This document shows positions 4,811 to 59,461 of a stretch of DNA of 64,000 nucleotides, piece after piece (the first letter of the stretch is position 1; each line of letters starts with the position of its first letter). Below the pieces are notes generated by a model. That model worked only from the letters and a program-made list of their open reading frames with translations, made no database searches and was not told the DNA's origin. The stretch lies in assembly GCA_964542255.1 (NCBI GenBank), contig CAZITV010000001.1, positions 28,860 to 92,859 of the forward strand, in the 5' to 3' direction. The DNA comes from an uncultured Victivallaceae bacterium. GTDB lineage: Bacteria > Verrucomicrobiota > Lentisphaeria > Victivallales > Victivallaceae. Position numbers and translations under genes: made by a program.

Positions 4811-4842
4811 ATTGCTAAACTCCTTATGTATGTGTTATAACG

Positions 4843-5736
4843 TCAAAATTTTACTTGATTGCTGCGAAATGCCTGGGCGATGGCAAGCGGTACCTGAGCT
4901 TCAACGTCAACCAGCTTTGCCTGCATTTCACAGATTTTGGCTTTCATCTCCTGTTCTTGCGATACCGCCATGGCGCGGCGTTCTTCCGCTTTGGCTTGGG
5001 CAATTTCTTTGTCGGCGTTTGCCTGGTCAGTTTGCAGTTCTGCTCCAATATTTCTGCCGATATTCACATCGGCAATATCAATGGAGAGAATTTCAAACGC
5101 GGTGCCGGAGTCTAATCCCTTGGCAAGAACAACTTTGGAAATGCTGTCGGGATTTTCGAGTACGTCTTTATGATTATTAGCGGAGCCAATAGTTGTTACA
5201 ATCCCCTCTCCAACACGTGCCAAAACAGTTTCTTCGCCTGCGCCACCCACTAGGCGTTCAATGTTGGTGCGTACTGTCACTCTGGCAATGGCAGTAACTT
5301 GAATACCATCTTTGGCAACCGCGGTTACCATCGGAGTTTCTATAACTTTGGGATTTACGCTCATTTTAACTGCTTCAAGCACATTTCTCCCGGCTAAATC
5401 AATTGCCGTCGCACGCTGTATGCTTAGATTCAAATTAGCCTTGCCAGCGACTACCAGCGCATCAACCACACGCAGCACATTGCCGCCAGCCAGATAGTGT
5501 GTTTCCAGAATATCAGCGGTGATGTCGTCAATACCGGCTTTGCGTGCTTGAATTAACGCGTCCACGATAATGGTTGGCGGTACCCGGCGCAGACGCATGC
5601 AAATCAGGGTAAAAATACTGATATGCACATTGGCAAATATTGCTGCCACCCAGTGCCGTACTGGAATAAATACTACAAATAAATAGAGTATAAAAATTGC
5701 ACTAAAAATCAATAAAACGACCAAAAACATTCCCAT
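4843..5736 (-). CDS. floA: flotillin-like protein FloA (YqfA/UPF0365 family), paralogue 1, shorter C-terminus
   Basis: 297 aa. The core is near-identical at protein level to the downstream paralogue. It ends ...AFRSNQVKF and lacks the DYY..KNI.ADT.MR tail. Confidence 0.9.
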
Positions 5737-5805
5737 GATATTATCCTTTTTTATTTGAGTTGATATTTATGAGCTGTCATAAAATAGTTATTATTCATTT
5801 TGAAA

Positions 5806-7389: not shown

Positions 7390-7694
7390 TTTTCCTTGTA
7401 AAGTTGATACGGTTTTGACAAAATTGAGCCGTATAAAAATATTCAAAATCATTTTACTGTCATCGTCTATAATTTAACAAGTCAATATTTATTATCAACA
7501 AGAAATAATCAAAAAATGAAAACATTACAAATAATTATTGATAGGCAGTTGAACAAAAGAAATAACAAAAAATATCTTTGCAGCGCATATTCATAACGAC
7601 TAATTCTTTTCTTTGAATTACTGGCAAAAGGCTTTTTGTGGTGATATATTAAATACATATGAATTTCTGAAAATAATGGTCAAAAATCAGGACA

Positions 7695-13067: not shown

Positions 13068-14015
13068 CTATGACATTTGAATTTTGAAAGGCTGGAATGA
13101 TAATAGTTTTTCAAGTTGCCCCAGCATCTCACGGCAATCTTTAGATGCTTCAGGCCACATTGCCTGAAGATGGGTGCAGGCAAAAGTTGACATATCTGGG
13201 ATATTAATAAATAATGGAAGTTGTTGCTGTCCCAAAATAGTAGTGGCAGTATTGGCGATATCATTAATCACGGCGGCAGGCAAATGCCAGTGACCAGACA
13301 AAGCCATCTCTGTAAGAGGAGATTCCAATTTGCAATATGTTACTAAGTTGGAAAGCATAAATGTGATTTTTAGTGCTGGAAAGAGCCGGCTTATCCCTGC
13401 GAAGGTAATGACGTTATTATCAATTAATAATTTTGATTCCGGCTTCAGTGAGGATAATAATTCATTGCGGTTAAGCAACCATGGCGCTTTGCGATTTATT
13501 TGCGTAATACTTGGTTCGGGACAGTGAAGGTTGCTGACTTCACGGTGGCGGAGATGCTTAGCCAATTCAAGAAATAGTGTTGGTGATGCAGTCGTGATAT
13601 TAATTTTTTGGGCAGCATTAATAACTTGCCCTGCTAAAACTTTAGCAGTCGTTGTTGAGATACCGAGATGCTGTTCTAGAAGCGATGATATTGCAGCATT
13701 TTCCGCAGATAATAAACTTTCAAAACAGATATTTTGTTCACTGTAAATCTTGGCTGCATCGATAAACCCGCTGTTATGCAGCGCATGTACAACTGCCGCA
13801 TTAAGTTCACGTTCTGAAAAAAGATTATTTGGGCGTTTATCATGTTGTATCGCATATTCAACGGCTAACGCAATATCCTCAGCCATCCATTCATCTTGTA
13901 CTCCGGAATGGCGAAATGCTGAGACAATTCCACGCTGCAGCCACTCTGAATCAAAGTTGGAAATTGTGCCATCTCCAGCCAGCAGCTGGATCGCATTGTC
14001 AGCAATTTTTATCAT
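13068..14015 (-). CDS. hypothetical protein with N-terminal degenerate ATP-cone-like domain
   Basis: 315-aa ORF. Its ATG overlaps the nrdR stop (TAATG at 14013-14017). N-terminus GDGTISNFDSEWLQRGIVSAF resembles NrdR KRNKIREDFDREKLRRGIENAC. No family recognised for the C-terminal 220 aa. Confidence 0.6.
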   Translation of the reverse strand: MIKIADNAIQLLAGDGTISNFDSEWLQRGIVSAFRHSGVQDEWMAEDIALAVEYAIQHDKRPNNLFSERELNAAVVHALHNSGFIDAAKIYSEQNICFESLLSAENAAISSLLEQHLGISTTTAKVLAGQVINAAQKINITTASPTLFLELAKHLRHREVSNLHCPEPSITQINRKAPWLLNRNELLSSLKPESKLLIDNNVITFAGISRLFPALKITFMLSNLVTYCKLESPLTEMALSGHWHLPAAVINDIANTATTILGQQQLPLFINIPDMSTFACTHLQAMWPEASKDCREMLGQLEKLLSFQPFKIQMS

Positions 14016-14461
14016 TATTTTAGCGCTCTGATTTCTTCTATAAATTCTTCTACGTCTTTAAACTTGCGATAAACTGAGGCAAATCTTACATAGGCAACCT
14101 GGTCGAGCGATTTCAGCGCTTCCATAACTCTTCTGCCGACCTCTTGAGTTTCAACTTCCTTGTCGTATAGTCGCTGCAGTTCAATGTAAATTTCGTTTAC
14201 TGTCTGGTCAATGTCATCAGGCGTTACTGGACGTTTATAACAGGCATTTTCAATGCCGCGCCGTAATTTTTCACGGTCAAAATCTTCGCGAATTTTATTG
14301 CGTTTGATGACTTTTAACTCAGCCTGGATAATGTCTTCATAAGTGGTAAAACGGTGCCCGCAATTAAGACACTCACGCCTTCTTCTAACCCCTGCGCCCT
14401 CTTTTACTGAACGAGAATCTACGACTTTATCGTCAAGAAACTGGCATTCTGGACAACGCAT
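14015..14461 (-). CDS. nrdR: transcriptional repressor NrdR
   Basis: MRCPECQ...CLNCGHRFTTYE zinc ribbon plus ATP-cone. Start set to the ATG at 14461 (GGAGG 8 nt upstream); the ORF track extends to 14491. Confidence 0.93.
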   Translation of the reverse strand: MRCPECQFLDDKVVDSRSVKEGAGVRRRRECLNCGHRFTTYEDIIQAELKVIKRNKIREDFDREKLRRGIENACYKRPVTPDDIDQTVNEIYIELQRLYDKEVETQEVGRRVMEALKSLDQVAYVRFASVYRKFKDVEEFIEEIRALK

Positions 14462-14745
14462 ACGAAACCTCCAACAAAAACATTGTTGCATAAATTTAAG
14501 AGCAGATATAAAAATACTATTATAAATAGCTCTATATAATCAAACGGATCGTGTTTTGTAATAATATGCCGATAAATTACATTCAACTTAATTCAGATTG
14601 TTTTTATGGAATCATTATTAAAATATCTGGCTGTTAAGATACACTATAAAACAAAATGATTCAATATAAGTTCTGTACAGTTGCATAAATTTGTTCTGAC
14701 GAGAAATGCTTAAAAATCAATAAAGCAGATTATTAACGGTTATTA

Positions 14746-26422: not shown

Positions 26423-28072
26423 CTAAAACTTTGCGAACATCATCTCGTGATCATAAATTTCAAAATCAGCTTTTTGTCCGGAATCACGAAAATCACCGCG
26501 TATAATATGAACTAAGCTGCCCGGTTTTGCTTTCTTAACCATCTTGCCAAATTCATCTTTTGAAATAATTCTCGACTTCTGATCCTGATAATTTAGACCA
26601 TACTCAAGCTCACCACCATGATCGGCAAACAATAAATCATTACGGTGAAATTCCCATGCGGCAGCATGCATTACATTGGGATGTGCAACGATAACTGTTC
26701 CCGGCGATATATATTGGCGCCACTTTTTGAAATAGATCCCTTGTGCTTTGTTGCTCAAGACTCGATCTGGAATAACGTAATTAGCCACAAAAAAAACTGC
26801 TAACGGCGCAATCGCGAAAATCGCTGTTTTATAATACACTTTTTTAACTCTAACCACAAATAACAATCCGGCAGCCCAAATAATTACTGCAGCGACCGCG
26901 ATTATCCATTTAAATACTTCCTCGCATGAGTACAACTCAGGAAAGATGCCACGATTTGCCAGCAATTGGTAAAGAATAAAACCTGCCGCGCTTATCAGTA
27001 GTGCCCAAGCTAATATTTTGCAGGACGTGTCCAGTAGAGAAGTGCCGGCGTTTTTGCAGTAACCAAGCAAACCCCATCCTGTCAACAGTGCTAACGGCGG
27101 AAAAAGCGGCAAAGCATATGTTGCCAATTTTCCGCTGCATGCAGAGAAAAACAGCGTAGGAAATATGAACCAGCAAATAATAAATTTGATAAATGAGTCA
27201 GGAAGAGCAACACGGTGTTTCACAGTCAAGCCTTTTAATGCGCAAGGCAGTAATAACACCCATGGCAACAACCCGCCCAATATAACCGGAACAAAGAACC
27301 AAAACGGTTCTGGATGTTGTGTCCCGCGTTTTTCAAAAAAACGTTGAACATGTTCAACCCAAAAAAAATAGCGCCAAAAGTCAGGTTCACGTTGATGAAT
27401 CATTAACACCCAGGGCGCAGCAATTACAATAATAGCTAAAAGCGGTATCCATGGCAGTATAAATATATCGCGCCAGCGTTTTTCCCAGAGCAAAAACGGA
27501 ATTATAGTTACCGCCGGGACTGCGAAGGCTAGGAATCCTTTGGTGAGAAATGCCATTCCGCAGCAGGCACCACTGAGCATTAAAAATAGCATTTGCTGAC
27601 GGTTAAACCGCAATTCCTGCGTGGCTATAAAAAAGAAAACTAGCGTTCCTGTAACAAATAGTGTCGTAGGGCTGTCCAAAACTGCAAAAGTTCCAATTCC
27701 GTAAACTAGACCAGATGTCAGAAAAATTGCGGTTGTCAGCCATGCAAAAAAAAGCTGTCTTGTCGTGCGCCAGGATAGAAAGAAAATTAGCGCTGCGCTG
27801 ATTCCTGTTGCCAGTGCTGAGGCAAAACGTACAGCAAACGCATTTTCGCCAAACAATAGTATCGCAGCCGCATTTAACCAATATCCCATTACAGGTTTTT
27901 CAAAATATCTAACGCCAATTAATCGCGGTGTAACCCAATCGCCAGTTTGGATCATTTCTCGCGGAATTTCGGCATATCGAAACTCATCCGGTGCAATCAT
28001 TGGCTTGCCACCCAACGGCAGAAGATAAATTAATGCAAATATAGATATTAGTGACAGAATAAGTAGTTTCAT
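26423..28072 (-). CDS. ArnT/PMT-like GT-C glycosyltransferase (GT83/GT39-like), paralogue 2
   Basis: DEFRYAEIPREM, RYFEKPVMGYWL, FGENAFAVRF, more than 10 TM segments. Start set to the ATG at 28072 (MKLLILS), 13 nt after the upstream stop; the ORF-track extension would overlap the upstream gene. Confidence 0.85.
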   Translation of the reverse strand: MKLLILSLISIFALIYLLPLGGKPMIAPDEFRYAEIPREMIQTGDWVTPRLIGVRYFEKPVMGYWLNAAAILLFGENAFAVRFASALATGISAALIFFLSWRTTRQLFFAWLTTAIFLTSGLVYGIGTFAVLDSPTTLFVTGTLVFFFIATQELRFNRQQMLFLMLSGACCGMAFLTKGFLAFAVPAVTIIPFLLWEKRWRDIFILPWIPLLAIIVIAAPWVLMIHQREPDFWRYFFWVEHVQRFFEKRGTQHPEPFWFFVPVILGGLLPWVLLLPCALKGLTVKHRVALPDSFIKFIICWFIFPTLFFSACSGKLATYALPLFPPLALLTGWGLLGYCKNAGTSLLDTSCKILAWALLISAAGFILYQLLANRGIFPELYSCEEVFKWIIAVAAVIIWAAGLLFVVRVKKVYYKTAIFAIAPLAVFFVANYVIPDRVLSNKAQGIYFKKWRQYISPGTVIVAHPNVMHAAAWEFHRNDLLFADHGGELEYGLNYQDQKSRIISKDEFGKMVKKAKPGSLVHIIRGDFRDSGQKADFEIYDHEMMFAKF

Positions 28073-28085
28073 ATTTTGCTGATAA

Positions 28086-29738
28086 TCAGTATTCCGTAAA
28101 TAGCGTTTTGTTAATAATTGAACTGTTTTTCCCAGGGGGCAAATCTTTCCAAAGCCTCGGTGAATCAACAATTACCAGAATTTTTCCCCGGTTGGGCTGT
28201 TGTATAAGTTTAATTAAATCTTCATTGTTCAAAAAACGTCCTGCTGCTTCGGGTTTGCTAAGTCCATAGCTAAGTTCTCCGCCTTTGCCGTAAACATAGA
28301 GATTGTCGCGTTTGTAGTACCAGCAGATTGAACTAAGCAAATTTTTGTACGATACAATTATTGTCTCCGGAGTTACACGCCATTGATTAGCTCGGAGCAT
28401 TTTTTCCGGTGATTTGACGTTCAATACTAAATTGGGAATCGCTAAATTATATGCCCAGTATGCTGCCAGCATCCCAACAGTGAAAAAAATAATTTTTCTC
28501 CATTGGGAATCGGCCTTAATCGCCTTGAATATCAGGCAAAGCCATATCACAACAGCAGAAATAATCAGCAGCCATTTGAAAATTTCATCACGGCCGAAAA
28601 GAGTAAACTCAATTGTGCTTGTTAGCGATAATGTTTGCAGCAACATTAAACCGATTGCTGAAACTCCAAGCAGTACCGCAAGAATTTTTAGCGAAAGATT
28701 TATTTTGCCGCTTCGGCCATTTTCAACCGCAGAATATAAGCCAAAACTTAACAGAATTGCTAATGGCGGCATGCATGGTAAAATGTAGGTTGCAAGTTTA
28801 CCGCTGGATGCAGAAAAAAATAAAAATGGAAGAATAAACCAACAAGCGGAGTAACGTAACAGCGGTTGATTAAATGCTTCTTTCATTTTACCACGGTAAC
28901 CATCGATAATTGTAGGTAAAAACATTATCCAAGGAAAAATGCCGACAATAATCACTGGAATGAAAAACCAGAATGGTTCAGGATGTTGCGATTCCTTCTT
29001 CTCCATAAATCGCTGGACATGCTCAACCCAAAAGAAATAGTTCCAGAAATCACCATCACGAAAATGTACAATCAATGTCCATGGCAAAACTGTGAGCACT
29101 AGTGTTATTAACGGCAACCATGACAAGCAAACCGCTGATTTGAAGCGTTTTTCCCAAAAGAGAAATGGTGCAATGGCAATGGCCGGGATGACTACAGCAA
29201 GAAAACCTTTGGTAAGGAAGGCCAAACCGCAGAAAACTCCAAACAAGGACAGATAAACAATTTTTTGCAGCGTAAATTTATCTTCCTGGTAGGCGACAAA
29301 AAAACATAGCATCGCCAAAGTCAAAAAGCAGGTTAAAATTGAGTCGAGAACAGCAAATGTTCCAACAGCATACACCAATGCTGATGAGATAAACATAACC
29401 GTCCCCAATACTGCCTGACGAGCGCCAAGATAACGGTGAAGAAATGCGAGCATCGCTAATGCCGTAATCCCGGTAAGCATAGCAGAGGAAAATCTCACGG
29501 CAAAATTATTTTCACCAAACAGCATCATGGATATGGCATTCAGCCAATGTCCCATAATTGGTTTTTCAAAATAGCGTAAATTGTTGAGTTTGGGTACGAC
29601 CCAGTCCTGGTGAGCTACCAGTTCACGTCCAATTTCTGCATATCTTGTTTCATCGGGAGTCAGTAAAGGTCGAAACCCTAAAGGCAAAATATAGAGCATT
29701 AAAAATGCCGCAATAATCGCCAGATATATATTTCGCAT
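28086..29738 (-). CDS. ArnT/PMT-like GT-C glycosyltransferase (GT83/GT39-like), paralogue 1
   Basis: DETRYAEIGREL, RYFEKPIMGHWL, FGENNFAVRF. Polytopic. Start set to the ATG at 29738 (MRNIYLAII). Confidence 0.85.
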   Translation of the reverse strand: MRNIYLAIIAAFLMLYILPLGFRPLLTPDETRYAEIGRELVAHQDWVVPKLNNLRYFEKPIMGHWLNAISMMLFGENNFAVRFSSAMLTGITALAMLAFLHRYLGARQAVLGTVMFISSALVYAVGTFAVLDSILTCFLTLAMLCFFVAYQEDKFTLQKIVYLSLFGVFCGLAFLTKGFLAVVIPAIAIAPFLFWEKRFKSAVCLSWLPLITLVLTVLPWTLIVHFRDGDFWNYFFWVEHVQRFMEKKESQHPEPFWFFIPVIIVGIFPWIMFLPTIIDGYRGKMKEAFNQPLLRYSACWFILPFLFFSASSGKLATYILPCMPPLAILLSFGLYSAVENGRSGKINLSLKILAVLLGVSAIGLMLLQTLSLTSTIEFTLFGRDEIFKWLLIISAVVIWLCLIFKAIKADSQWRKIIFFTVGMLAAYWAYNLAIPNLVLNVKSPEKMLRANQWRVTPETIIVSYKNLLSSICWYYKRDNLYVYGKGGELSYGLSKPEAAGRFLNNEDLIKLIQQPNRGKILVIVDSPRLWKDLPPGKNSSIINKTLFTEY

Positions 29739-29953
29739 AAAAATCCCATTAATTAATTCAGAACATCCAGTAATAATAAAAAACAACAGTCTATATACTT
29801 TCCCTCAATTATTTTTTTTTTCAAGAAAATAATCACAATATTATCAGTTTTAATTAATATATACTTTTTTAAAGAGTAATACAAAATTCTGCTTGTAAAT
29901 TTATAATGACAGGTGTAAATTAAAAGATGTTAAGTTGCTTTTCTTTAGTAATT

Positions 29954-38536: not shown

Positions 38537-39076
38537 CTACTTGTTCCAGTTTACTCCAACCATAAATGGAAATCTGCCATTTTTATTGAAGTTAACCAAA
38601 CCAAGCTGAAAATCAATGTTATCTGCATGATTAACTATGCCGAATTGCCAGCCACTTTTTTTCCCAACGTTGACTATGCCAATCTGCGCGCCAACAAGAT
38701 CTTTTTCAATGATATTTACTAATGACATTTGAACGCCATATAACTGATTGGATATGCTTGGTGCCAGCATTGCCCATTGAAATCCATTGACATTGTCCGT
38801 GGTACAGCAGAATCCCCATTCAAAACCGACTACCTTGCCTTTACCTGATGAAATTGGCAAACCTAGTTTAAGTCCTGAAACGTTTGCTGTTTCAATTGAT
38901 GTTGGCGCATTAAACCAAAATCCTGCAAGCATTCCATCCCAACGCTCATTCTGTACAGTATTAGTAGCGTTATTTTTAGAGTCAGTAGCGGGAACAACAG
39001 TATCCTGAGCTGGGCAAAGTGCAGCAGCAAAACATAAAGTCACCATAACTGCACAACTGATTAATGACGTTTTCAT
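38537..39076 (-). CDS. secreted protein made of short G-x-Q-x-G-x-x-N repeats
   Basis: Signal peptide MKTSLISCAVMVTLCFAAALCPA, then units of about 17 aa (VNGFQWAML, LYGVQMSLVN, LVGAQIGIVN, SGWQFGIVN, IDFQLGLVN). Start set to the ATG at 39076 (AAGGA upstream). Reminiscent of spirochaete/Bacteroidota surface-repeat proteins (from memory). Confidence 0.62.
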   Translation of the reverse strand: MKTSLISCAVMVTLCFAAALCPAQDTVVPATDSKNNATNTVQNERWDGMLAGFWFNAPTSIETANVSGLKLGLPISSGKGKVVGFEWGFCCTTDNVNGFQWAMLAPSISNQLYGVQMSLVNIIEKDLVGAQIGIVNVGKKSGWQFGIVNHADNIDFQLGLVNFNKNGRFPFMVGVNWNK

Positions 39077-39202
39077 CCTTTTATTCCTTTTTTTGTTTTT
39101 CTTTGCTAAAATATAAATCTTAGCTAAAGTATTAATATTTAAAATGATACAGGCAGGCATCGCCAAATGCAGTGCATACTTGTATTTTATATCAAATTTA
39201 GG

Positions 39203-40258
39203 TTATTCGTCATCGTTAATGTGTTTGGTTTTGCCTAATATATCTTCAGGATTAACTGGTGTGTGATTTAGGCTGATATTAATATGTTCATGCTTAACTA
39301 CTGGTACTGATTTTAGATCCAGTTCTGGTCGCGCGGTTAATGAATTTAGCGAAATATGCGCATTGTCAATAGAAGATTTTGATAACGCCGGATGAGGTTG
39401 CGGGGTGAATTGCACCGTTTTTTTTAAACCTTCTTCTGAACTGTGTGGAAATGGTTGTTTAGCGCTCTGATGATCAGTTTTATCAACTGTATTTGCAGGC
39501 ATAGGCATTGCTGGACGATGAGTGTGATGAGGTGGCATAGCAGGAGTTTTATCTTTTTCAATAACGCCTGGAGGCAGTGGCGGTGTTGTTTTGTTCAGTG
39601 GGGTAGGCAAATCGTTTTTAACTTGAATTTTAGCATGTTCTTGAATTGGATGCCTTAAGCTGCCAGTTGCAGGCTCAAGACACTGCTCAGGCTTTACTGG
39701 CTGGATTACCACATTACTGCCGGACTCAATATGTGACTTTGCGGCAATGGTTGACATTGAATGTTTTGCCTGATGCGGTGCAGATTGCCCAATGTCAGGA
39801 TTGTCTAGATTGCTAACGTATAATTTATTATTAGTTTGGTGCATCCCGGCAGAAAAATATTCATTTACTGGGGCATTGTCTGAATTTGCATTGTTTGCGA
39901 CTGTAGGCGAAACGATACTCGTTGGCGTTTTATTAATATCCATTTTATTATGGCGCAAAATGTCTTCGGTGTAAAATTCTGTTTCAACAATATCCGAAAC
40001 ACCGTGCTTGCCCATTCTAATTTCATAAAGTAGCTTATTGGCACGTTGCAGTTCAACAATTACCTCGGCAAATGAACCATCAAATTTCTTTGCGTGCCAA
40101 ATAATGCTGTTTAATTCGACATCACTTGTTTCTCTGAATTTATCAAATTCAAAGATTAACTTTCCTAATCGAATGATTAGAGTTAAAAAAATTATACACG
40201 TTATTATGCTGACTACGACAAGCGCCACCAGCAAGACTGGTAATGTCAAATCTCCCAT
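39203..40258 (-). CDS. membrane-anchored protein with Pro/His/Thr-rich C-terminal half, unknown function
   Basis: 351-aa ORF with N-terminal TM LPVLLVALVVVSIITCIIFLTLII and a low-complexity P/H-rich region (PPHHTHRPAMPMPAN). No family recognised. Confidence 0.5.
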   Translation of the reverse strand: MGDLTLPVLLVALVVVSIITCIIFLTLIIRLGKLIFEFDKFRETSDVELNSIIWHAKKFDGSFAEVIVELQRANKLLYEIRMGKHGVSDIVETEFYTEDILRHNKMDINKTPTSIVSPTVANNANSDNAPVNEYFSAGMHQTNNKLYVSNLDNPDIGQSAPHQAKHSMSTIAAKSHIESGSNVVIQPVKPEQCLEPATGSLRHPIQEHAKIQVKNDLPTPLNKTTPPLPPGVIEKDKTPAMPPHHTHRPAMPMPANTVDKTDHQSAKQPFPHSSEEGLKKTVQFTPQPHPALSKSSIDNAHISLNSLTARPELDLKSVPVVKHEHINISLNHTPVNPEDILGKTKHINDDE

Positions 40259-45477: not shown

Positions 45478-45636
45478 TACTCAATATAGAATTTATAAAT
45501 ATTGATATTCTACGCATCCTTTGATGCCATGACATACATGGCATAAATTGCATCAGTTAAATCCGATAGAGCGCAATCCTGCAGGTGTGCGAAAGGTCAT
45601 TTATAAGTTTATTGTGTAACGACGCCTCTGCGATCC

Positions 45637-47748
45637 CTACACTTGAATATTCAACCATGTTTTTATTATCGGGGCATATTTAATAATTGCCGGGACGATC
45701 ATTATCAGCAACATTGGAACAGCAAACAATAAGATATGTATAGCAGGGTTCTGGTAATCAAGATATGGCAGCCTTGATTGATTGTCATAGAGACATGCAT
45801 TGTTGATTTCATTCCCTGCTATTGATGTTGGATTCATTGTTAGCAAAATGCCGCAGAAGAGCATTCCTACAATCAGACCAATAGCACCGGGAACTCCGAG
45901 AAAAATTGAAGCAATTACTGGTATATTTAAAACAATAAATGCTGTCACGAACATATTCTTCCCTGCCCGGACATGATTTTCAACCGATGGCTTTAATAAT
46001 GCATGCATAAAAAATGGCAACATTACCCCAATAAGCATTCCTGCCAATAGAAAAGGATTGAGAATGAACATTTGATAGAGTAGCATAAAGTCTGGGATAG
46101 ATGAATTCGCTAACTCTTCAGCAGTGACATCAAGACCAACAATATCAGATTGTTGTATTAATTCCATACAGGATGTTTTTGCAGTCAAAACAAACACTGC
46201 CGGCAAGGTTAATCCACTCATGGCTGCAGCAACTGCTGAATAGCTTCTGCTCAAGTTGGCAGGACTCTGTTCAATGACTGCTAACGCAGATACATTATCA
46301 ATGGTTATTTGCGGCAATGATGACATTTTGGCAATATTGGCAGCATTTGATACGACTGAGTTGCTAATTGCTGCCGCCAGTGGAATGATGCTGCCGGCAA
46401 GCAGGCCAGTAGCTGCGAGTGCTATCCCGTAGAACCCAGAATAAAAATCTGCAAAGCCGCCAGCAAATCCGAAAGAACAAAGCAGAGTTGCGGATAAAAG
46501 TATCGCATTTTGACCTAACGGAGGTGGCAAAACGGAAAGTTTCGTGGCACGTAATATTTTAACAAAATAGTAGTCATCACTTTGCCCTATCAAAATTCCT
46601 GCCACTATTCCTGTAACAGCAGCTAAATACATTCCCCAATCGATAAAATTCATATATACCAAGTAAGACATTGCTATAGCAACAGTAATATTCGCTCCAG
46701 CAAAACATGCTAATAGGCAACGCCGCATATTGCGCTGCAGTTCAGAGTCCTTAAATTTTACCATACTAAGCACAAGCATGGAAATTATTATACCGAATCC
46801 CGCAATTAACATTGGTGTCACAAATCTGCTGGCAGCTTCGTCAATATCACCTGACGCGATAGGCAGCACTGTTCCGATTGCACTGGTTGCAGTGATTGCG
46901 GTAACAAATGCTGTGAAAATATTTGCATTCATGCCAAAGATGTAATGGTGGCGATTGCCGGCACCGCTAATTCCGGCAAAAAGAGACTGCACGCTGGCAC
47001 CAAATGAAAATAGCAAAAGCAGGTTAGCTATAAAAGTAAATTTATCTTCAGGGGATAAATTCATTGGTACTATACAAATGCCAAACCATTCAACACCAGA
47101 TTGTAAGTTTGCTGAAGTAAATACAAATAAATCAAGAAAGCAGTACCATCCGCAAATGCCTAGCATTGCGATTCCGATAATGGCTAGTCCTGCAGCAGTT
47201 CCTATCCGTAAAACCAAATTAAGACCGCCACTTTGCCCGTTTTGATGACACGCTTGAACTACAGGTGCTGCCGTAGATGATATAAGTTGAAAACATATTT
47301 TGTTGGCCAGTAGCACGAGAATGCCGCCTGAAACGAAAGCGAAAGGGGCGAGCCCTGATTGCAGGCCAAAAAACGACATTGCCAGCAAAACAATAAAAAT
47401 AATTAATGACGTAGCAAAGCCAGCTTGGTATTGTGCAATAGTTCCTTTGGAAATATCAGCATTAATAAATACAGCGGTGCTGTTTACCTTTGCATCTACA
47501 TTTTTATTTTTTGTGATTGTTTTAAAAATCGACACACAAGTTAACAGCGCCAACAATGCCGCCAATGGTACGATCCACCATAAATCAGGAATTTGCTGAG
47601 CTTGCTCAAGGAGGATTGTTGATGTGCTGTCCATTGCCTGATTGCTGTATAATGGCGAAGAATCTACCGGCTGCGAAGAAATGTTATTATTTTGTCCTAA
47701 AAGTGTTACAACCGAAAAAGTAATCATTGTAAGTAACAGCAACTTCAT
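45637..47748 (-). CDS. membrane-integral pyrophosphatase (H_PPase)-like polytopic protein lacking the catalytic acidic/basic motifs
   Basis: 703 aa, about 16 TM segments. By-eye collinear matches to M-PPase blocks (FGASVQSLFAGISGAG; WGMYLAAVTGIVAGILIGQSDDYY; GFYGIALAATGLLA; AAAISNSVVSNAANIAKM; NPFLLAGMLIGVMLPFF; PTSIAGNEINNACLY), but with the conserved Asp/Lys replaced. Confidence 0.65.
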   Translation of the reverse strand: MKLLLLTMITFSVVTLLGQNNNISSQPVDSSPLYSNQAMDSTSTILLEQAQQIPDLWWIVPLAALLALLTCVSIFKTITKNKNVDAKVNSTAVFINADISKGTIAQYQAGFATSLIIFIVLLAMSFFGLQSGLAPFAFVSGGILVLLANKICFQLISSTAAPVVQACHQNGQSGGLNLVLRIGTAAGLAIIGIAMLGICGWYCFLDLFVFTSANLQSGVEWFGICIVPMNLSPEDKFTFIANLLLLFSFGASVQSLFAGISGAGNRHHYIFGMNANIFTAFVTAITATSAIGTVLPIASGDIDEAASRFVTPMLIAGFGIIISMLVLSMVKFKDSELQRNMRRCLLACFAGANITVAIAMSYLVYMNFIDWGMYLAAVTGIVAGILIGQSDDYYFVKILRATKLSVLPPPLGQNAILLSATLLCSFGFAGGFADFYSGFYGIALAATGLLAGSIIPLAAAISNSVVSNAANIAKMSSLPQITIDNVSALAVIEQSPANLSRSYSAVAAAMSGLTLPAVFVLTAKTSCMELIQQSDIVGLDVTAEELANSSIPDFMLLYQMFILNPFLLAGMLIGVMLPFFMHALLKPSVENHVRAGKNMFVTAFIVLNIPVIASIFLGVPGAIGLIVGMLFCGILLTMNPTSIAGNEINNACLYDNQSRLPYLDYQNPAIHILLFAVPMLLIMIVPAIIKYAPIIKTWLNIQV

Positions 47749-48035
47749 TCCTACACCTCGTAATTATTATAAGTGAAATACATTAATATTTAAGCTAATT
47801 TCAAAACTATTTCGTGACATTCGTGTCTTTTTTGAGTTTTTGGCGACTTAAGCTCATCTTGCGTAACGCTGCCAAGCTCGATTTCGCTCATAATCGTCAA
47901 AACCTTCAAAAAATCCTGAGAAACTTCATTTTAAAATAGTTTAGCAATTACCTCTATTTAAATAAAAAAAATTACAATACTTCGAATAATACGCGTTATT
48001 AAACGGAGTTATGGTAATACAAACATTATGCGAAA

Positions 48036-55287: not shown

Positions 55288-58257
55288 ATGGTGTTTATGA
55301 AGAAGTATTTATATGCAATCTTGTTTATCTCAATCCTGCTATTTGTAAATTGTTTATCTGCTGGCGATTGGATGTTGGATGACTTTGAATCAGGAGGGAA
55401 AAACTGGTATTTTCCTTCAGGTACTCAGACGGCTAGAATCGAATCAAGTGGTGATGAACATGGTAATGTTCTGCTGATGATTGCAGATAATAGTAACTTG
55501 GCAGTTAGTAGTCCAATAATCAAATTAGGACAGGAACTGAGTACAACGGAATCTTATGAATTATTTTATGAGGTTAAGTTAAACTCAATTACTGCCGGAA
55601 AACTTTCTGTATCACTGGTTTTTTCTGATGTTAATAACAAGTTTATAAAGCAATATTTTATAAAGAATTTTGAGGAGAATCAAACTACTGCAGGGTGGCA
55701 ATTTTATAATACCGTGTTTGGTAATAATACTGAAATGCCTTTTCCAGAAGGCGCATCTACGCTGCAAATTCGTTTTTCATTTTGGAACACAAATGGTATC
55801 AGCTCAGGCCAGGCGATGTTTGATCATATTAGGATTATTTCTTCCTCCACTTATAATCGTATTGCAAGAGATACTGTAAAAAATACTGATGCCGAAATTA
55901 TTGAACCACGTTTTGAAATTAACAATGAACACCATTATTACTGGATTGAGGCAGAAAAATTAGCTCCTGCCGATGCGTTTTATGGAAGTTTTAAATATCG
56001 CCATGCCTGGTCGAAAGTAAAAAACAGTATGCAAAATGAATCGGGTGATTGTGCATTAATACGGCCAATGATGCGCACTCAGGCTCAAGCAACTGCTGCA
56101 TTTCGCACCGGAAGAAGCGGATATTATAATATGTGGCTCAGAGCTAAATCTACCAAATCGACAGTACCTGCAGGAATCACTTGCGATTGGAATGGACGGA
56201 TGTTCGATATCCACATTCCTTCAACCGAAGCTAATTATTCGGAAAATTATAGCTGGATCAAGGTAAATCCTACAGCAGTTAAAATTAAAAGAACAAAGAC
56301 CAATATAGTTAAGTTTAGCAATAACCTAAATCCGGCGCAAAATTTATTGATAGACGCGTTTCTGGTCACGGATGACTTAAACTATGTGCCGCCTGAAAAG
56401 CTTCCACCACATCAATATTTTTCTGTTTTACCATATTCTGGAAACTCGATTTGTGCTACATTTTGGCATCCTGCCAGGTTAAATACCTCCTTATATATAT
56501 GCCGTGATTCATCTCAAAATTTTTTGATGCAATTACGAAATATGTGCAGTACTCCGTTGAATAATTTTGCCATTGAAATTACATTGCCTGAAGGAATAAC
56601 GATAGACAATCCAATCAATAGTACATTCCCGGCAAATTATGCCGGATTAAATGGCGTCTTCACAAGCTCGATCCCTAATGAATTTAATGAACAGAAAGTT
56701 TCAATCGAAAATAGGATATATAACAGGTATATTTTAAAATATAAAAAGGATATTCAACCATACGATCTTGAAAATAATTTGCGTTCATTATTTTTTCTTG
56801 TTCTTAATGCAGATAAAAAAATAGTGGAAGGTTCTTATCAGGTTGCTATCAAAGTTTTAGGTGATAAAATTACTCCCGGCAATTATATTCAAAATATTGA
56901 AATCATCCCTGAATTGGAGGCGGCTAAACCACGACTATATGAATGGGGAGTGGACGCAATATATTCTCCATTGTTGAACATAACCTCGCAAAAAAAAATT
57001 ATGCAGTCATTCGAACGTGCCGGGGTAACGGTGTGGGCTGAACGTATAACTGCTGGTGATCCGATCTTGTCAGCTAAAAATCGTGAACAGTGGAAAATGC
57101 TTGTCGGCAGTAAGAATATGCGTCTAGTTAATTGGGGTGATTGGTGGTGGCCAGGATGTTATAATAATGAATCAAGCAGAGATTATTTGCGGCGGCATCC
57201 AGATGCAATTGGTGCTTGGCGCAACGATGAAATCGGAAATGCATTAGCTGGAAAACTTCTTTGCCCGCAATATCTCATTCAGGGTTCAGGTGAATCATAT
57301 ATCCGAGAGCACCTTGAAAAAATGGTCGCGGAACTGCTTGATAATGGAGCGCGGGAATATATCGAGAATCTAGAGTGTTCCAATCCGGAGTCTTTTTGTT
57401 TTTGTCCAAACTGTAAACAGGAATTCTCGGAATTTAGCGGCATACCGATTCAATTAATTAAGGATTTAAACGCAGACAGGCTACTGCTTCTGCATAAAAA
57501 TAAATGGACTGAATTTCGCTGTAGACAAAATGCTAAAATCGTAGATAAAATAACAACAATGGCGCGACAAATCAATCCGGAAATTACCATCAGAGTTTTC
57601 GGAGATTTGCCTAACTCTATTGCTAAAACGCGTTTTGGCACCGACTGGCAACGCTTGCTGAAAATTAAGAATATCGAAGGTATTTATGCTGGCGGCAATA
57701 CTTATTTAGCAGAACATCTAGCAGAATTGTCAGAAATGTGCCGCCAGGAACGTAAATCGTTGGTCACTTTAGTTAAGTCAACATTGGGTATGCCATTTGG
57801 CAATAATGATTTAGGGCTGCGTAACCAGGCATACCTTGAAGCAAAAATTATTCACGATATAATGTGTGGCTCCAATGGTGTTTATATTTGGTGGTGGGGC
57901 ACTCTTGACGGGCGCTGTCTTACTGCCATAGCCAATGCGTCAAAAATTGGCGAGGAATTTGGTGATATCATTCTTGGCGGTCAACGTACTATTAAAAAAA
58001 TAGGGGTAACATCAGAATTTGTTTTAATAACAGTTGCAAACAACCGGGGCAAACTGGTTGCGCTGGTCAATCCTTCACTTTATTCTGAAGATATGATATT
58101 GGAGCCTGCACAAGTGCTTGGAGTATTTCCGGAAAAAACTGAAATAACAAATCTAATTACCAGAAAAATTGAAAAAAATGATACAATCAGGGCAAGAGTC
58201 GATGGGGTTTTCCGTCAGGGTGATTTTGCAATTTGGTATATTCCATGCGTGAAATAA
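55288..58257 (+). CDS. large secreted multidomain protein (CBM-like N-terminal modules plus putative TIM-barrel glycoside-hydrolase-like C-terminal region)
   Basis: Signal peptide MKKYLYAILFISILLFVNCLSA (alternative start at 55297). DWMLDDFESGG...NW is a CBM-like opening. The WIEAEKL...YNMWLRAKS module and the FCFCPNCKQEFSEF Cys cluster resemble those in GH42-type barrels (from memory). Confidence 0.6.
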   Translation: MVFMKKYLYAILFISILLFVNCLSAGDWMLDDFESGGKNWYFPSGTQTARIESSGDEHGNVLLMIADNSNLAVSSPIIKLGQELSTTESYELFYEVKLNSITAGKLSVSLVFSDVNNKFIKQYFIKNFEENQTTAGWQFYNTVFGNNTEMPFPEGASTLQIRFSFWNTNGISSGQAMFDHIRIISSSTYNRIARDTVKNTDAEIIEPRFEINNEHHYYWIEAEKLAPADAFYGSFKYRHAWSKVKNSMQNESGDCALIRPMMRTQAQATAAFRTGRSGYYNMWLRAKSTKSTVPAGITCDWNGRMFDIHIPSTEANYSENYSWIKVNPTAVKIKRTKTNIVKFSNNLNPAQNLLIDAFLVTDDLNYVPPEKLPPHQYFSVLPYSGNSICATFWHPARLNTSLYICRDSSQNFLMQLRNMCSTPLNNFAIEITLPEGITIDNPINSTFPANYAGLNGVFTSSIPNEFNEQKVSIENRIYNRYILKYKKDIQPYDLENNLRSLFFLVLNADKKIVEGSYQVAIKVLGDKITPGNYIQNIEIIPELEAAKPRLYEWGVDAIYSPLLNITSQKKIMQSFERAGVTVWAERITAGDPILSAKNREQWKMLVGSKNMRLVNWGDWWWPGCYNNESSRDYLRRHPDAIGAWRNDEIGNALAGKLLCPQYLIQGSGESYIREHLEKMVAELLDNGAREYIENLECSNPESFCFCPNCKQEFSEFSGIPIQLIKDLNADRLLLLHKNKWTEFRCRQNAKIVDKITTMARQINPEITIRVFGDLPNSIAKTRFGTDWQRLLKIKNIEGIYAGGNTYLAEHLAELSEMCRQERKSLVTLVKSTLGMPFGNNDLGLRNQAYLEAKIIHDIMCGSNGVYIWWWGTLDGRCLTAIANASKIGEEFGDIILGGQRTIKKIGVTSEFVLITVANNRGKLVALVNPSLYSEDMILEPAQVLGVFPEKTEITNLITRKIEKNDTIRARVDGVFRQGDFAIWYIPCVK

Positions 58258-58444: not shown

Positions 58445-59461
58445 ATGGCTAAAATTATTTGCATGAGTGCCGCTGACATTGCTTGGAAAAAAATGGTTGC
58501 TCTACTGTTCAAACCTTTTTGTTTTACGAAGTGGTTTTATCTAGGCTTCTGTGTTTGGATGGCTACACTGCTCGACGGCAGCAGTAATTTTTACAATTAC
58601 CGTGTGCCGCAAAAAAATGAAAAAAATGAGAGCTCGAGGGAATTTATTAATGCGCTGGACAGGATTTTTAATGGCGAATCCGGCACGTTTTTATCTAGGA
58701 GTTCGGCTGAACTAAAAATTCCTGAACAATACATTACACTAATCATTGCTTCGATAATCATTTTTCTAGTTATACTCCTTTTAATAACAGTCATCTTGAT
58801 TTGGTTTCGTTCAAGATTTAAACTAATTTTATTAGATAACTTAATTCATGATCAAACTGAAATTATATCCGCATGGCGTAAGTTCAGGGCAGGCGGCAAT
58901 AATATATTTAGTTGGTATATCATTTTAGGTGTCATCGCAATTTTACTTTATAGTGTCTGTTTTATCGTTGCCGCGTTTGGATTTATCCCTTGGTTTCGAG
59001 CTTGTTTGCTTAATCATAAGCTATTGACTCCAGAAGCATTTCATATATTTTTAATGGCAACTGCCATGTCATTTATGTGTATTATTACTATAGCCTTTGC
59101 TTTAATTAATTTTATATTTGATGAATTAGTGATACCTGTTATATATTGGACTGGAAGTAGTGTAATGCCTGCTTGGGTAAAAATAGGGATATTATTAAGA
59201 GCTAACTTGGGTAGTTTTTGCCGCTATCTATGTTTATATTTAATTTTTTCAATAATAGCCGGCAGTGCAATAATTCTCGCAGGATTATTGACCTGCTGTC
59301 TGGGATTATTATTATTGTTGATCCCGATAATTGGTACCGTGATTATTTTACCTGTTCCAGTATTCTTTAAATTTTTCAGTTTAGAATTTCTTGCCGCAAT
59401 GGATAACAGTATGCAGTTGACAACAAATAACGCAGCGCTTGATATCGAATTAATGCATTAG
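58445..59461 (+). CDS. polytopic membrane protein of unknown function
   Basis: 338-aa ORF with about 6 TM segments. N-terminus LLFKPFCFTKWFYLGFCVWMA. Same strand as the 989-aa gene, 187 nt downstream. Confidence 0.55.
   Translation: MAKIICMSAADIAWKKMVALLFKPFCFTKWFYLGFCVWMATLLDGSSNFYNYRVPQKNEKNESSREFINALDRIFNGESGTFLSRSSAELKIPEQYITLIIASIIIFLVILLLITVILIWFRSRFKLILLDNLIHDQTEIISAWRKFRAGGNNIFSWYIILGVIAILLYSVCFIVAAFGFIPWFRACLLNHKLLTPEAFHIFLMATAMSFMCIITIAFALINFIFDELVIPVIYWTGSSVMPAWVKIGILLRANLGSFCRYLCLYLIFSIIAGSAIILAGLLTCCLGLLLLLIPIIGTVIILPVPVFFKFFSLEFLAAMDNSMQLTTNNAALDIELMH

Follow-up and report, generated by a model that had tools for sequence, protein, structure and literature searches.

A membrane pyrophosphatase homologue of Victivallaceae that has lost its catalytic residues and is under purifying selection

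The locus and its features

The window analysed here (the whole stretch of DNA, 64 kb long, from an uncultured Victivallaceae bacterium) contains on its minus strand an ATG-started open reading frame of 703 amino acids plus stop codon, the product of which is named "Na+/H+-translocating membrane pyrophosphatase" by JGI. A preliminary description had proposed that it is a homologue of the membrane-integral pyrophosphatases (M-PPases, gene hppA) with the fold kept and the active site erased. The following features (residue numbers in the 703-aa protein) were assigned:

45637..47748, minus strand: complete coding sequence of the stripped M-PPase homologue (open reading frame list, PF03030 at 104 bits, full-length collinear alignment to canonical PVC-type M-PPases)
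47754..47759, minus strand: ribosome-binding site GAGGTG, with the ATG 5 nt downstream (sequence reading and conservation)
47692..47748, minus strand: residues 1-19, predicted signal-peptide-like hydrophobic helix or extra TM0 (AlphaFold helix 2-19)
47587..47691, minus strand: residues 20-54, Ser/Gln/Pro-rich tail, little conserved, predicted to be disordered and periplasmic (pLDDT, clade conservation)
45655..47586, minus strand: residues 55-698, predicted M-PPase body of 16 transmembrane helices (AlphaFold2 model, Foldseek)
47053..47121, minus strand: residues 210-232 (FTSANLQSGVEWFGICIVP), a periplasmic insertion that forms a beta-hairpin between TM4 and TM5 and marks the PVC-type subfamily (alignments)
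46939..46974, minus strand: residues 259-270 (GISGAGNRHHYI), remnant of loop 5-6, with R5.50 changed to G259, D283 to N265 and D287 to Y269 (alignments, residue table)
46912..46923, minus strand: residues 276-279 of TM6, the former ion gate, with D6.50 changed to N276, E6.53 to T279 and the adjacent S6.54 to A280 (residue table; gate according to PMC5150537)
46507..46539, minus strand: residues 404-414 (LSVLPPPLGQN), left over from loop 9-10, which has lost 17 residues (alignment, conservation)
46243..46374, minus strand: residues 459-502, formerly DxxGPxxDNAGG...DALDxxGNTT...GKG, now AAISNSVVSNAANIAKM...SALAVIEQSPANLSRS (residue table)
45955..45996, minus strand: residues 585-598 (LKPSVENHVRAGKN), all that is left of loop 13-14, from which about 35 residues (EEVRRQF...DYxxCVxIST) have been deleted (alignments)
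45724..45834, minus strand: residues 639-675, what remains of loop 15-16, with its GGAWDNAKKY block either deleted or substituted, and the start of TM16 (alignments, residue table)

The CGAGGT core of the ribosome-binding site and the ATGAAG start are kept in the loci L001, L003 and L004 of relatives. Rfam, searched at a permissive threshold in the window and in L001, revealed neither a riboswitch nor a leader RNA near the gene (only chance matches, E > 0.6), and in a consensus scan promoter and terminator sites were no more numerous than in shuffled sequence. The signal-like helix at the N-terminus is indeed present, as had been noted, but it is not distinctive of the stripped protein, since the canonical relative P0050 has a comparable one; similar N-termini, ending in ..LCAQ or ..LYAQ, are found in P0002 and P0003. 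In the tail that follows only 14% of the positions are invariant within the clade, and pLDDT is below 50 at residues 18-41.

The protein belongs by homology, far beyond chance, to the M-PPase superfamily (PF03030, H_PPase), which it matches in three stretches with 104.4 bits (E = 8.4e-30; Pfam gathering cut-off 29.7), as compared to about 590-660 bits for canonical members. phmmer found the solved structures of Vigna radiata (VrPPase, 4A01; E = 5e-6) and Thermotoga maritima (TmPPase, 4AV3; E = 1e-5), and BLASTP aligned residues 57 to 701 collinearly with the canonical enzyme of Victivallis (E = 5e-75). Canonical enzymes of the PVC (Planctomycetes-Verrucomicrobia-Chlamydiae) group are matched end to end with E values of about 1e-71 to 1e-75. 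Collinearity with the H+/Na+-pyrophosphatases, on which the first reading had been built, is thereby established. The curated equivalog models stay far below their cut-offs (NF001954, the best score, 130.9 bits versus 894; TIGR01104, 66.8 versus 651.9).

The proposed retention of the fold of about 16 transmembrane segments agrees with an AlphaFold2 model that, when the alignment includes canonical sequences, predicts 16 helices after the signal-like helix (pTM 0.83); an alignment of nothing but the three clade sequences gave pLDDT 32 and pTM 0.22, so that the fold evidence is not independent of the canonical sequences. With this model Foldseek matched M-PPase structures only (TM-score 0.66-0.71, E down to 6e-17), the next fold following at E = 0.12. 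The hairpin insertion between TM4 and TM5 (predicted strands 219-221 and 224-227) is common to the canonical enzymes of Victivallis, Akkermansia-like bacteria and Verrucomicrobia, and so is the C-terminal tail, which reads IKYAPIIKTWLNI against IKYSPVIQDWLGI in the comparison with the canonical Victivallis enzyme; other M-PPases have neither.

Losses in the hydrolytic centre, the ion gate and the cytoplasmic loops

The comparison, made column by column, covered 29 catalytic and gate positions at which 36 canonical sequences show no or hardly any variation. All three clade sequences have 27 of the 29 substituted or deleted and keep only N508 and D731 (as D or E). The hydrolytic centre (K250, D253, D257, D283, D287, D507, D691, K694, D727, K730 and D731 in VrPPase numbering) has been deleted or neutralized at 10 of its 11 positions, D731 being the exception; the Mg-coordinating aspartates that were checked (D253, D257, D283, D507, D691, D727) and the PPi-binding lysines (K250, K694, K730) are all gone. 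The table thus bears out the claim that neutral residues stand where the family coordinates Mg2-PPi, and with 27 invariant residues lost there is no acidic/lysine cage to hold this substrate.

Within residues 459-502 the losses are D500A, D507S/A, E514K, D527S/C, D530A/S, N534Q and K541R, the stretch IEQSPANLSRS being invariant in the clade. Residues 639-675, for which pLDDT drops below 50 at 640-665, contain D723N/K, D727L and K730L/M, together with the retained D731 as D664 (E in relatives). Some of the motif assignments made at first sight had to be revised. The pairing of GISGAG with RVGGGI stood, but it is the second DNVGD repeat that NRHHY matches, following a deletion of 35 residues. 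The terminal GDTxGDPxKD, believed to be missing, is in fact substituted (DNQSRLPYLD), with the last Asp alone kept. The Asp and Lys of the WDNAKK block are gone, as had been stated; the block itself is deleted in the MAFFT alignment and substituted in the HMMER alignment.

In the ion gate and coupling funnel R5.50 is replaced by G259, D6.50 by N276, E6.53 by T279 (A in relatives) and S6.54 by A280, and in TM16 N16.46 by H671 and K16.50 by F675; the pair K12.50 (now R501) and D16.39 (D/E664) is retained. The gate residues of M-PPases are those defined in PMC5150537. "Active site erased, fold kept" held in every test that was run; the accompanying suggestion of a repurposed ion channel is weakened by these replacements, which neutralize the gate and the funnel charges.

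Four cytoplasmic loops, 5-6 (the lid), 9-10, 13-14 and 15-16, have been cut out, in total about 110 residues relative to the canonical PVC enzymes. In loop 5-6 a 35-residue deletion has removed TKAADVGADLVGK...IADNV and leaves, in the AlphaFold2 model, helices 233-262 and 266-297 joined by a turn of 3 residues. In canonical enzymes this lid closes the substrate pocket and is required for directional pumping (PMC5150537). Of the remnant, residues 259-270, 92% of the positions are invariant within the clade, and the remnant of loop 9-10 contains the clade-specific, invariant PPPLGQN. The deletions in loops 9-10 and 13-14 and the completeness of the gate loss go beyond the preliminary description.

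Could PPi still be hydrolysed or bound at a rebuilt, non-canonical site, for example a His/Arg cluster formed by NRHH and D664? D731, one of the two nucleophile-coordinating aspartates, and N508 are kept, and a new conserved basic motif, GNRHHY, occupies the former DNVGD site. However, every mPPase is absolutely dependent on Mg2+ (review), all the aspartates and lysines named above that coordinate Mg or bind PPi have disappeared, and the lid that closes the pocket is deleted. We therefore consider such a site highly improbable.

Orthologues, selection and origin of the gene

Four intact orthologues from independent assemblies have open reading frames of equal length, share every loss and share all deletions, which are in frame. 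The dN/dS values of the stripped gene, at unsaturated dS, are 0.060, 0.077 and 0.053; the same pairs gave 0.053 for ProRS, 0.053 for an aminoacyl-tRNA synthetase (aaRS), 0.065 for a DEAD helicase and 0.129 for TauE. Purifying selection on the gene is thus as strong as on the neighbouring aminoacyl-tRNA synthetases. Over a longer distance the protein evolved faster, by a factor of about 2.3, than did ProRS or NifU (dN 0.25 versus 0.10-0.11). An identical protein is present on 7 public contigs from several sources, including the NCBI MAG GCA_044344165.1. The distribution is narrow: clustering at 50% identity places the clade in a single cluster out of 1.84 billion representatives, and a scan of genome contigs found one species representative only, the Victivallaceae MAG CAYMSF01. 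Metagenome contigs scanned with the clade alignment (two back-translated peptide patterns, a narrow probe) gave no confirmed relative.

The extreme divergence, the loss of all that activity is known to depend on and the narrow distribution might be taken as signs of a slowly decaying pseudogene or of a mis-assembled or mis-called open reading frame without function. This reading is ruled out by the dN/dS values, equal to those of essential neighbours, and by the intact reading frames of four assemblies, with ribosome-binding site and start conserved; in-frame, shared deletions, the recurrence of the identical protein on 7 contigs and new motifs of 8-14 residues that are invariant across orthologues of 64% identity leave it a negligible probability. 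The search for relatives that had been recommended turned up common substitutions and no frameshift decay. The protein is a pseudoenzyme, a homologue of an enzyme family without the catalytic residues and under purifying selection, and we are confident that its gene is a selected, catalytically dead derivative of hppA.

The motifs invariant across the 64%-identical orthologues are GAGNRHHY, QACHQ, NMRRCLLACFAGAN, PPPLGQN, IEQSPANLSRS and YQNPAIHILLF. Helix by helix, conservation within the clade peaks in TM8-TM11 and TM13, with invariant fractions of 0.92 in TM11, 0.86 in TM10, 0.86 in TM13 and 0.82 in TM8, next to 0.69 in TM5, 0.67 in TM6, 0.62 in TM12 and 0.67 in TM15 (0.92 in the loop 5-6 remnant); the fractions rest on essentially two independent sequences of 64% identity, and the peak at TM10 and TM13 is suggestive only.

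These numbers bear on a passive channel or secondary transporter in which the inner-ring helices TM5, 6, 11, 12, 15 and 16 would line a neutral polar path, independent of PPi, for another solute or ion. The path would be formed by N276, N463, N468, N471, Q494, S495, N498, H671, Q666 and N667; many polar residues at the former funnel and gate are clade-invariant, TM11 is the most conserved helix, the R501-D/E664 pair has survived, and the modelled fold is a transporter fold. Yet all gate charges are removed, a bulky Phe stands in place of K16.50, the inner-ring helices except TM11 are no better conserved than the outer ring, and no transport-related neighbours or regulators were found at the loci examined. 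We regard transport as unlikely.

As to the origin of the gene, a conserved operon partner was not found, the gene context differing between the window and the relatives. In L001, L003 and L004 the stripped gene adjoins an aaRS gene whose counterpart stands beside the canonical hppA of Lentisphaerota WC36G, the one genome that served as canonical comparison locus; the contexts in the window and in Victivallis sp. Marseille-Q1083 differ. In L001 and L004 the gene is divergent from a class-II aaRS that is 65% identical to the hppA-neighbouring aaRS of WC36G and has the same orientation. Because of this shared neighbour the stripped gene looks like the lineage's own hppA. Its product is 25-29% identical to the canonical PVC enzymes, among which identity is 72-78%, a difference that suggests a rate burst in the stripped lineage and that we count as evidence for the origin. 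The gene thus appears to be the remodelled hppA orthologue of the lineage rather than an additional paralogue.

Pseudoenzymes are frequently regulators of active paralogues, and the stripped protein might accordingly be a non-catalytic, regulatory partner in a heterodimer with a canonical M-PPase encoded elsewhere, exploiting the obligate dimer and the half-of-the-sites behaviour of the family. The interface helices TM10 and TM13 belong to the best conserved segments, TM13 is the helix closest to the distant canonical consensus (0.50 identity), and both Victivallis and Lentisphaerota WC36G have canonical enzymes of this subfamily. But the ancestral hppA locus seems to be occupied by the stripped gene itself, a second, canonical hppA was found neither within the 64-kb window nor in the relatives' loci, which span 12-22 kb, and the interface would have had to co-evolve with its partner at 25-29% identity. 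A heterodimer is therefore quite improbable.

The proposed role of the scaffold and its relation to known M-PPases

Nearly all residues and loops that bind PPi or move ions are lost and the copy is selected; hence the membrane scaffold of the pump now serves another job in this gut-type Victivallaceae bacterium, under strong selection. We propose that in a low-GC lineage of the family hppA has been converted to a gene for a non-catalytic membrane protein that functions as a PPi-independent, dimeric scaffold or binding protein (probability of the whole statement about 0.6). The specific mechanism of scaffolding or binding is put forward tentatively. The protein would neither hydrolyse PPi nor use the ancestral channel for pumping Na+ or H+, and the membrane body, of which TM8-TM11 and TM13 are best conserved within the clade, would carry its function. 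In canonical M-PPases TM10 and TM13 (PMC5150537), with TM15, form the interface of the homodimer; since TM10 and TM13 are conserved in the clade, dimerisation is expected to have been kept. The remodelled cytoplasmic vestibule with its new invariant motifs probably contributes. That these motifs are invariant across 64%-identical orthologues points to neofunctionalisation, in the sense of a site for a new ligand or partner, and less to passive loss.

A second, unrelated group of PF03030 proteins, P0146, P0226 and P0222, consists of full-length M-PPase homologues that have lost the motifs and are intact and syntenic at 45% identity. Three of the same four loops are affected by shortening or removal: 9-10, 15-16 and, in part, 5-6. 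The proteins of this group differ from the Victivallaceae protein in lineage (about 55% GC) and in their periplasmic insertion, and in having kept D6.50 and K16.50, so that their ion gate may survive. Judged from shared indels, their stripping appears to be independent of the Victivallaceae event; the neighbour-joining tree was not used for this purpose because long branches were pulled to its base (long-branch attraction). Other PF03030 proteins, P0095, P0108, P0081, P0092 and P0091, are partially degenerate. P0077, the best match outside the clade in the exhaustive search, was considered as a possible intermediate and set aside, being a singleton on a 3.4-kb contig without close relatives. 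The two groups together raise a possibility to which we give less than even odds: that "stripped pumps" form a class of membrane proteins not recognised before, with more than one origin (in Victivallaceae and, independently, in the P0146/P0226/P0222 lineage), each time by excision of the cytoplasmic catalytic superstructure, and with a scaffold whose rebuilt vestibule may now carry some other activity that does not depend on PPi, such as binding of a ligand, passive transport or signalling. If upheld, the convergence would indicate a general evolutionary route and probably one shared function.

To our knowledge, the described subfamilies of M-PPases differ in the transported ion and in K+ dependence, never in being catalytic. 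Literature searches returned no paper on inactive, pseudo- or paralogous non-catalytic M-PPase homologues, in line with the earlier impression that the class is undescribed, and no description of P0146/P0226/P0222 or other degenerate PF03030 proteins was found in the searchable literature. According to reviews, mPPases lack homologues among the known ion pumps, and they are regarded as a family of primary pumps that stands alone; a selected non-catalytic descendant means that the 16-helix scaffold is useful beyond PPi-driven pumping. The stripped protein also offers a natural minimal scaffold for the study of folding and dimerisation without the catalytic superstructure. The pump name given by JGI is a systematic annotation error, by which metabolic reconstruction would wrongly credit these bacteria with PPi-based energy conservation.

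The closest known systems are the canonical PVC-type, K+-dependent M-PPases of the Na+ class from Victivallis sp. Marseille-Q1083 (P0314 with 762 aa and P0308, a 799-aa form), WC36G (P0263), Akkermansia-like bacteria (P0004-P0044), Pontiella and Kiritimatiellia. With these the stripped protein shares collinearity over the full length (E = 5e-75 to 1e-90), the 16 helices, the TM4-TM5 hairpin and the amphipathic C-terminal tail and, in the loci of the relatives, with the WC36G gene the divergent aaRS neighbour; it differs from them in the loss of 27 of 29 catalytic and gate residues, the excision of four loops and the new clade-specific motifs. The Na+-PPase of T. maritima (4AV3, 5LZQ, 8B21) and the H+-PPase of V. 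radiata (4A01, 5GPJ) are the best and only structural matches of the model. Hydrolytic centre, coupling-funnel charges, ionic gate and lid loop are all absent from the stripped protein, which makes the defining chemistry of these two enzymes impossible. By analogy only, since fold and family are unrelated, it resembles the iRhoms, inactive rhomboid proteases in which a polytopic enzyme fold is under selection, the catalytic residues are gone and a new, non-catalytic role has been taken on.

Homology, fold and active site

45637..47748, minus strand: M-PPase-like coding sequence, 703 aa, ATG start

The product of this gene, here called the stripped protein, is by its sequence a membrane pyrophosphatase (M-PPase) homologue over its full length. 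It matched Pfam PF03030 with 104 bits (E = 8e-30; cut-off 29.7) and 11 NCBIfam M-PPase equivalogs, all far under their cut-offs (best 131 bits versus 894). Among 5.8 billion proteins the closest canonical enzymes scored about 260 bits (E about 1e-71, 27% identity, 92% query coverage), and in BLASTP the enzyme of Victivallis sp. Marseille-Q1083 was collinear with residues 57 to 701 (E = 5e-75). Against solved structures phmmer found the H+-PPase of Vigna radiata (VrPPase; E = 5e-6, residues 264-651) and the Na+-PPase of Thermotoga maritima (TmPPase; E = 1e-5, residues 55-233). The preliminary description had recognized a collinear M-PPase homologue with about 16 transmembrane segments, and the PF03030 match bears it out.

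An AlphaFold2 model from a 39-sequence alignment (pTM 0.83) predicts an N-terminal signal-like helix, as had been noticed at the outset, followed by 16 membrane helices. Foldseek of the model against the PDB yielded 35 matches, all of them M-PPases (TM-score 0.66-0.71) and alone significant (next fold E = 0.12), in keeping with the proposal that the fold is retained. When only the three clade sequences were used, the model collapsed to pLDDT 32; the claim to an M-PPase fold thus rests on sequence homology and on the model informed by canonical enzymes.

A table was made of 29 positions at which 36 canonical sequences vary little or not at all (VrPPase numbering from the phmmer alignment). Two of them, N508 and D731 (the latter as D or E), were kept in all three clade sequences; the other 27 were deleted or replaced, which bears out the loss of the catalytic Asp/Lys residues noticed at the outset. 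Deleted are K250, D253, D257, K261, E268, D279, D691, K694 and K695. The hydrolytic centre carries D283N, D287Y, D500A, D507S/A, E514K, D527S/C, D530A/S, N534Q, K541R, D723N/K, D727L and K730L/M, and gate and funnel (helix.position numbers) carry R5.50G, D6.50N, E6.53T/A, S6.54A, N16.46H and K16.50F. In the alignment with canonical enzymes four cytoplasmic segments are excised in frame, from loops 5-6 (35 residues), 9-10 (17), 13-14 (about 35) and 15-16 (about 24). Loop 5-6 forms the lid, which must close for pumping to be directional (PMC5150537). The block comparisons made earlier were essentially right, with two corrections: the counterpart of NRHHY, past the deletion, is the second copy of DNVGD, and the terminal GDTxGDPxKD, described as apparently missing, is there in substituted form. 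The stripped protein lacks an Mg/PPi cage, a lid and a charged gate. We infer that PPi hydrolysis and ion pumping have been lost; retention of a non-canonical PPase activity is unlikely.

Its homology places the protein in the H_PPase superfamily. It failed on each of the features tested that define a functional M-PPase, and annotating it as one is therefore unwarranted. The JGI/IMG names, 'Na+/H+-translocating membrane pyrophosphatase' for the protein and 'K(+)-stimulated pyrophosphate-energized sodium pump' for its fragments, are functional mis-annotations due to domain-level matching. In full-text literature searches no account of M-PPases that are inactive or pseudoenzymes came up, in line with the initial impression of an undescribed class, and the reviews consulted make no mention of non-catalytic members; according to one of them, no known ion pump is homologous to mPPases. 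The protein should interest those working on M-PPases and on pseudoenzymes, narrow and uncultured as its host range is.

Selection, ancestry and gene surroundings

The stripped clade comprises three clusters at 90% identity (P0001, P0002 and P0003). DNA of relatives came from Logan assemblies (loci L001/L002 and L003) and from the uncultured Victivallaceae MAG CAYMSF01 (L004), and seven public contigs, MAG GCA_044344165.1 among them, carry a protein identical to that of the window. In all loci the open reading frames are intact and of equal architecture, with every deletion and substitution in common.

Table. dN/dS by Nei-Gojobori for the stripped protein and its neighbours
Stripped protein, L001-L003: 0.060 (dS 0.59)
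Stripped protein, L001-L004: 0.077
Stripped protein, L003-L004: 0.053
ProRS, L001-L003: 0.053
Aminoacyl-tRNA synthetase (aaRS), L001-L003: 0.053
DEAD helicase, L001-L003: 0.065
SerA, L001-L003: 0.034
TauE permease, L001-L003: 0.129

Purifying selection is strong: since the reading frames are intact and dN/dS resembles that of the neighbours, the protein is constrained as its essential neighbours are. The low dN/dS (0.053-0.077) and the intact frames of shared architecture exclude a pseudogene for practical purposes; the decay by frameshift in relatives, for which the preliminary description had asked to look, was not seen, and the substitutions are conserved. The window organism is rather closely related to the CAYMSF01 MAG, with 85% identity in ProRS, 82% in NifU and 63.5% in the stripped protein. 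Between the window and L001, where dS is saturated, dN was 0.25 for the stripped protein versus 0.10-0.11 for ProRS and NifU.

The stripped protein shares a TM4-TM5 insertion, a periplasmic beta-hairpin, and a C-terminal tail with canonical enzymes of Lentisphaerota, Verrucomicrobiota and Kiritimatiellota, and therefore descends from M-PPases of this PVC (Planctomycetes-Verrucomicrobia-Chlamydiae) type. In the residue table that group has Glu at 6.53, which according to a review marks Na+-transporting and K+-independent M-PPases as against K+-dependent H+-PPases. Among themselves the canonical PVC-type enzymes of the three phyla show 72-78% identity, and with an archaeal enzyme 47-49%. Identity of the stripped protein to each of these is no higher than 25-29%, and with 250-268 bits it is equally far from them all.

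In L001, L003 and L004 the gene is divergent from an adjoining 504-aa class-II aaRS. Lentisphaerota bacterium WC36G, whose genome is complete, likewise has its canonical M-PPase gene, hppA, divergent from an adjoining 507-aa aaRS, the two synthetases being 65% identical. The common neighbour, in this single comparison genome, speaks for the stripped gene being the hppA of the lineage itself, in its ancestral position; the hppA context differs in Victivallis Q1083, and the window locus is rearranged. That hppA would have changed rapidly for a time before becoming stable again. Positional orthology with hppA weakens the alternative that the protein is a putative heterodimeric regulator of a canonical M-PPase.

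A ribosome-binding site (GAGGTG) lies 5 nt 5' of the gene, its core and the ATGAAG start being kept in the three related loci. There is no compositional break around the gene (window mean GC 39.8%). The surroundings are ordinary Gram-negative core chromosome: RuvB, a CT398-like zinc-ribbon protein, prephenate dehydrogenase, homoserine dehydrogenase, transketolase and BamA, further DnaB, ribosomal proteins, LpxB, the Mla transporter, NifU and ProRS. The 64-kb window holds no further pyrophosphatase gene, and window and relatives' loci offered no functional clue from an operon partner, riboswitch or promoter feature. The convergent stops of the CT398-like and stripped genes are separated by a 159-nt spacer with a short inverted repeat at 45524-45544 (ATGCCATG-TATGTC-ATGGCAT), which could be a bidirectional terminator; a consensus terminator scan made no call there. 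Other features of the window are:

3348-3806, minus strand: 152-aa ORF without Pfam match (E up to 1e-3)
3827-7452, minus strand: two tandem FloA flotillin-like genes (327 and 297 aa), then a 548-aa membrane protein of the NfeD family; the set resembles a flotillin/NfeD module that has been duplicated
13068-14491, minus strand: NrdR (158 aa, zinc ribbon and ATP-cone), then directly a 315-aa ORF whose sole Pfam match is a weak ATP-cone (E = 3e-5) and which may be a second ATP-cone regulator
26423-29786, minus strand: two tandem, slightly overlapping PMT-family membrane glycosyltransferase genes (dolichyl-phosphate-mannose protein mannosyltransferase-like; 582 and 566 aa)
38537-39166, minus strand: 209-aa ORF without Pfam match (E up to 1e-5)
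39203-40258, minus strand: 351-aa ORF without Pfam match (E up to 1e-3)
55288-58257, plus strand: 989-aa ORF without Pfam match (E up to 1e-3)
58445-59461: DUF7544 protein, 3' of the 989-aa ORF

Conserved motifs and proposed role

New motifs, 8-14 residues long and for the most part cytoplasmic, are invariant across the 64%-identical orthologues: GAGNRHHY, QACHQ, NMRRCLLACFAGAN, PPPLGQN, IEQSPANLSRS and YQNPAIHILLF. Conservation within the clade peaks in TM11 and the loop 5-6 remnant (0.92 each), TM10 and TM13 (0.86 each) and TM8 (0.82), and is lowest in the N-terminal tail (0.14). TM10 and TM13 form the dimer interface of canonical M-PPases (PMC5150537). The stripped protein probably still dimerises. 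Its action probably depends on the membrane body together with a cytoplasmic vestibule that has been rebuilt and would bind a new ligand or partner. Passive transport of a new substrate is possible, many polar residues of the inner ring being kept, but a Phe now stands at the gate and the ring shows no special conservation. In falling order of our confidence the alternatives are passive transporter, heterodimeric regulator, residual PPase and pseudogene.

Distribution and other degenerate PF03030 proteins

When 1.84 billion representatives at 50% identity were searched exhaustively with a profile, one stood for the stripped clade (next match 265 versus 1392 bits), and one GTDB species representative carries the gene, so that the clade is narrow. 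The canonical relatives of 757 aa (P0031, P0047), which prevailed among the matches of the first search, are encoded in loci of about 63% GC (L005-L007), between ackA-pta and homologues of Amuc_1100 and Amuc_1102 (Akkermansia pilus cluster), which indicates Akkermansia-like Verrucomicrobiota as hosts. P0077 (690 aa, NCBI, 3.4-kb contig) is an M-PPase of PVC type that stands as a singleton; it shares about 60% identity with canonical enzymes, with loops 13-14 and 15-16 deleted and several catalytic residues substituted (DAYGPVAGIAGGNARM, LASLGKATT). A search found no close relatives, and either recent pseudogenization or faulty assembly may account for it.

The exhaustive search also revealed other full-length PF03030 proteins without most of the motifs. 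P0081, P0092, P0091 and P0136, with an 'IYDxNFxGLG' insertion, have lost 8 or 9 of 9 diagnostic motifs (PF03030 about 310-360 bits). P0115, P0117, P0129 and P0099 (about 1020-1095 aa) have 0-1 of the 9 by regular expression and some 300 extra C-terminal residues without Pfam match. P0093 (1051 aa) carries CarboxypepD_reg and OmpA domains C-terminal to the pump; a review mentions an OmpA-like C-terminal extension in some m-PPases (PMC11210485).

A second degenerate clade (P0146, P0226, P0222; 646-670 aa, PF03030 61-116 bits), unrelated to that of the window, is encoded in loci of about 55% GC by genes that are intact at 45% identity and syntenic between rpoB/GH57 and RpiA:

L008, 10001-12013: P0226 gene
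L009, 10001-11941: P0222 gene

One branch, with the periplasmic insertion 'LVWGxxxIDxVAARxAxYxDL..WYQ' in common, forms an apparent graded series from canonical P0227 via partly degenerate P0095 and P0108 to loop-stripped P0226, P0146 and P0222, which looks like snapshots of a stepwise loss of catalysis. In the second clade nearly all M-PPase motifs are gone, loops 9-10 and 15-16 removed and 5-6 shortened. Three of the same cytoplasmic loops are thus shortened or removed in the second clade and in the window protein, but P0146, P0226 and P0222 keep D6.50 and K16.50, which the window protein does not.
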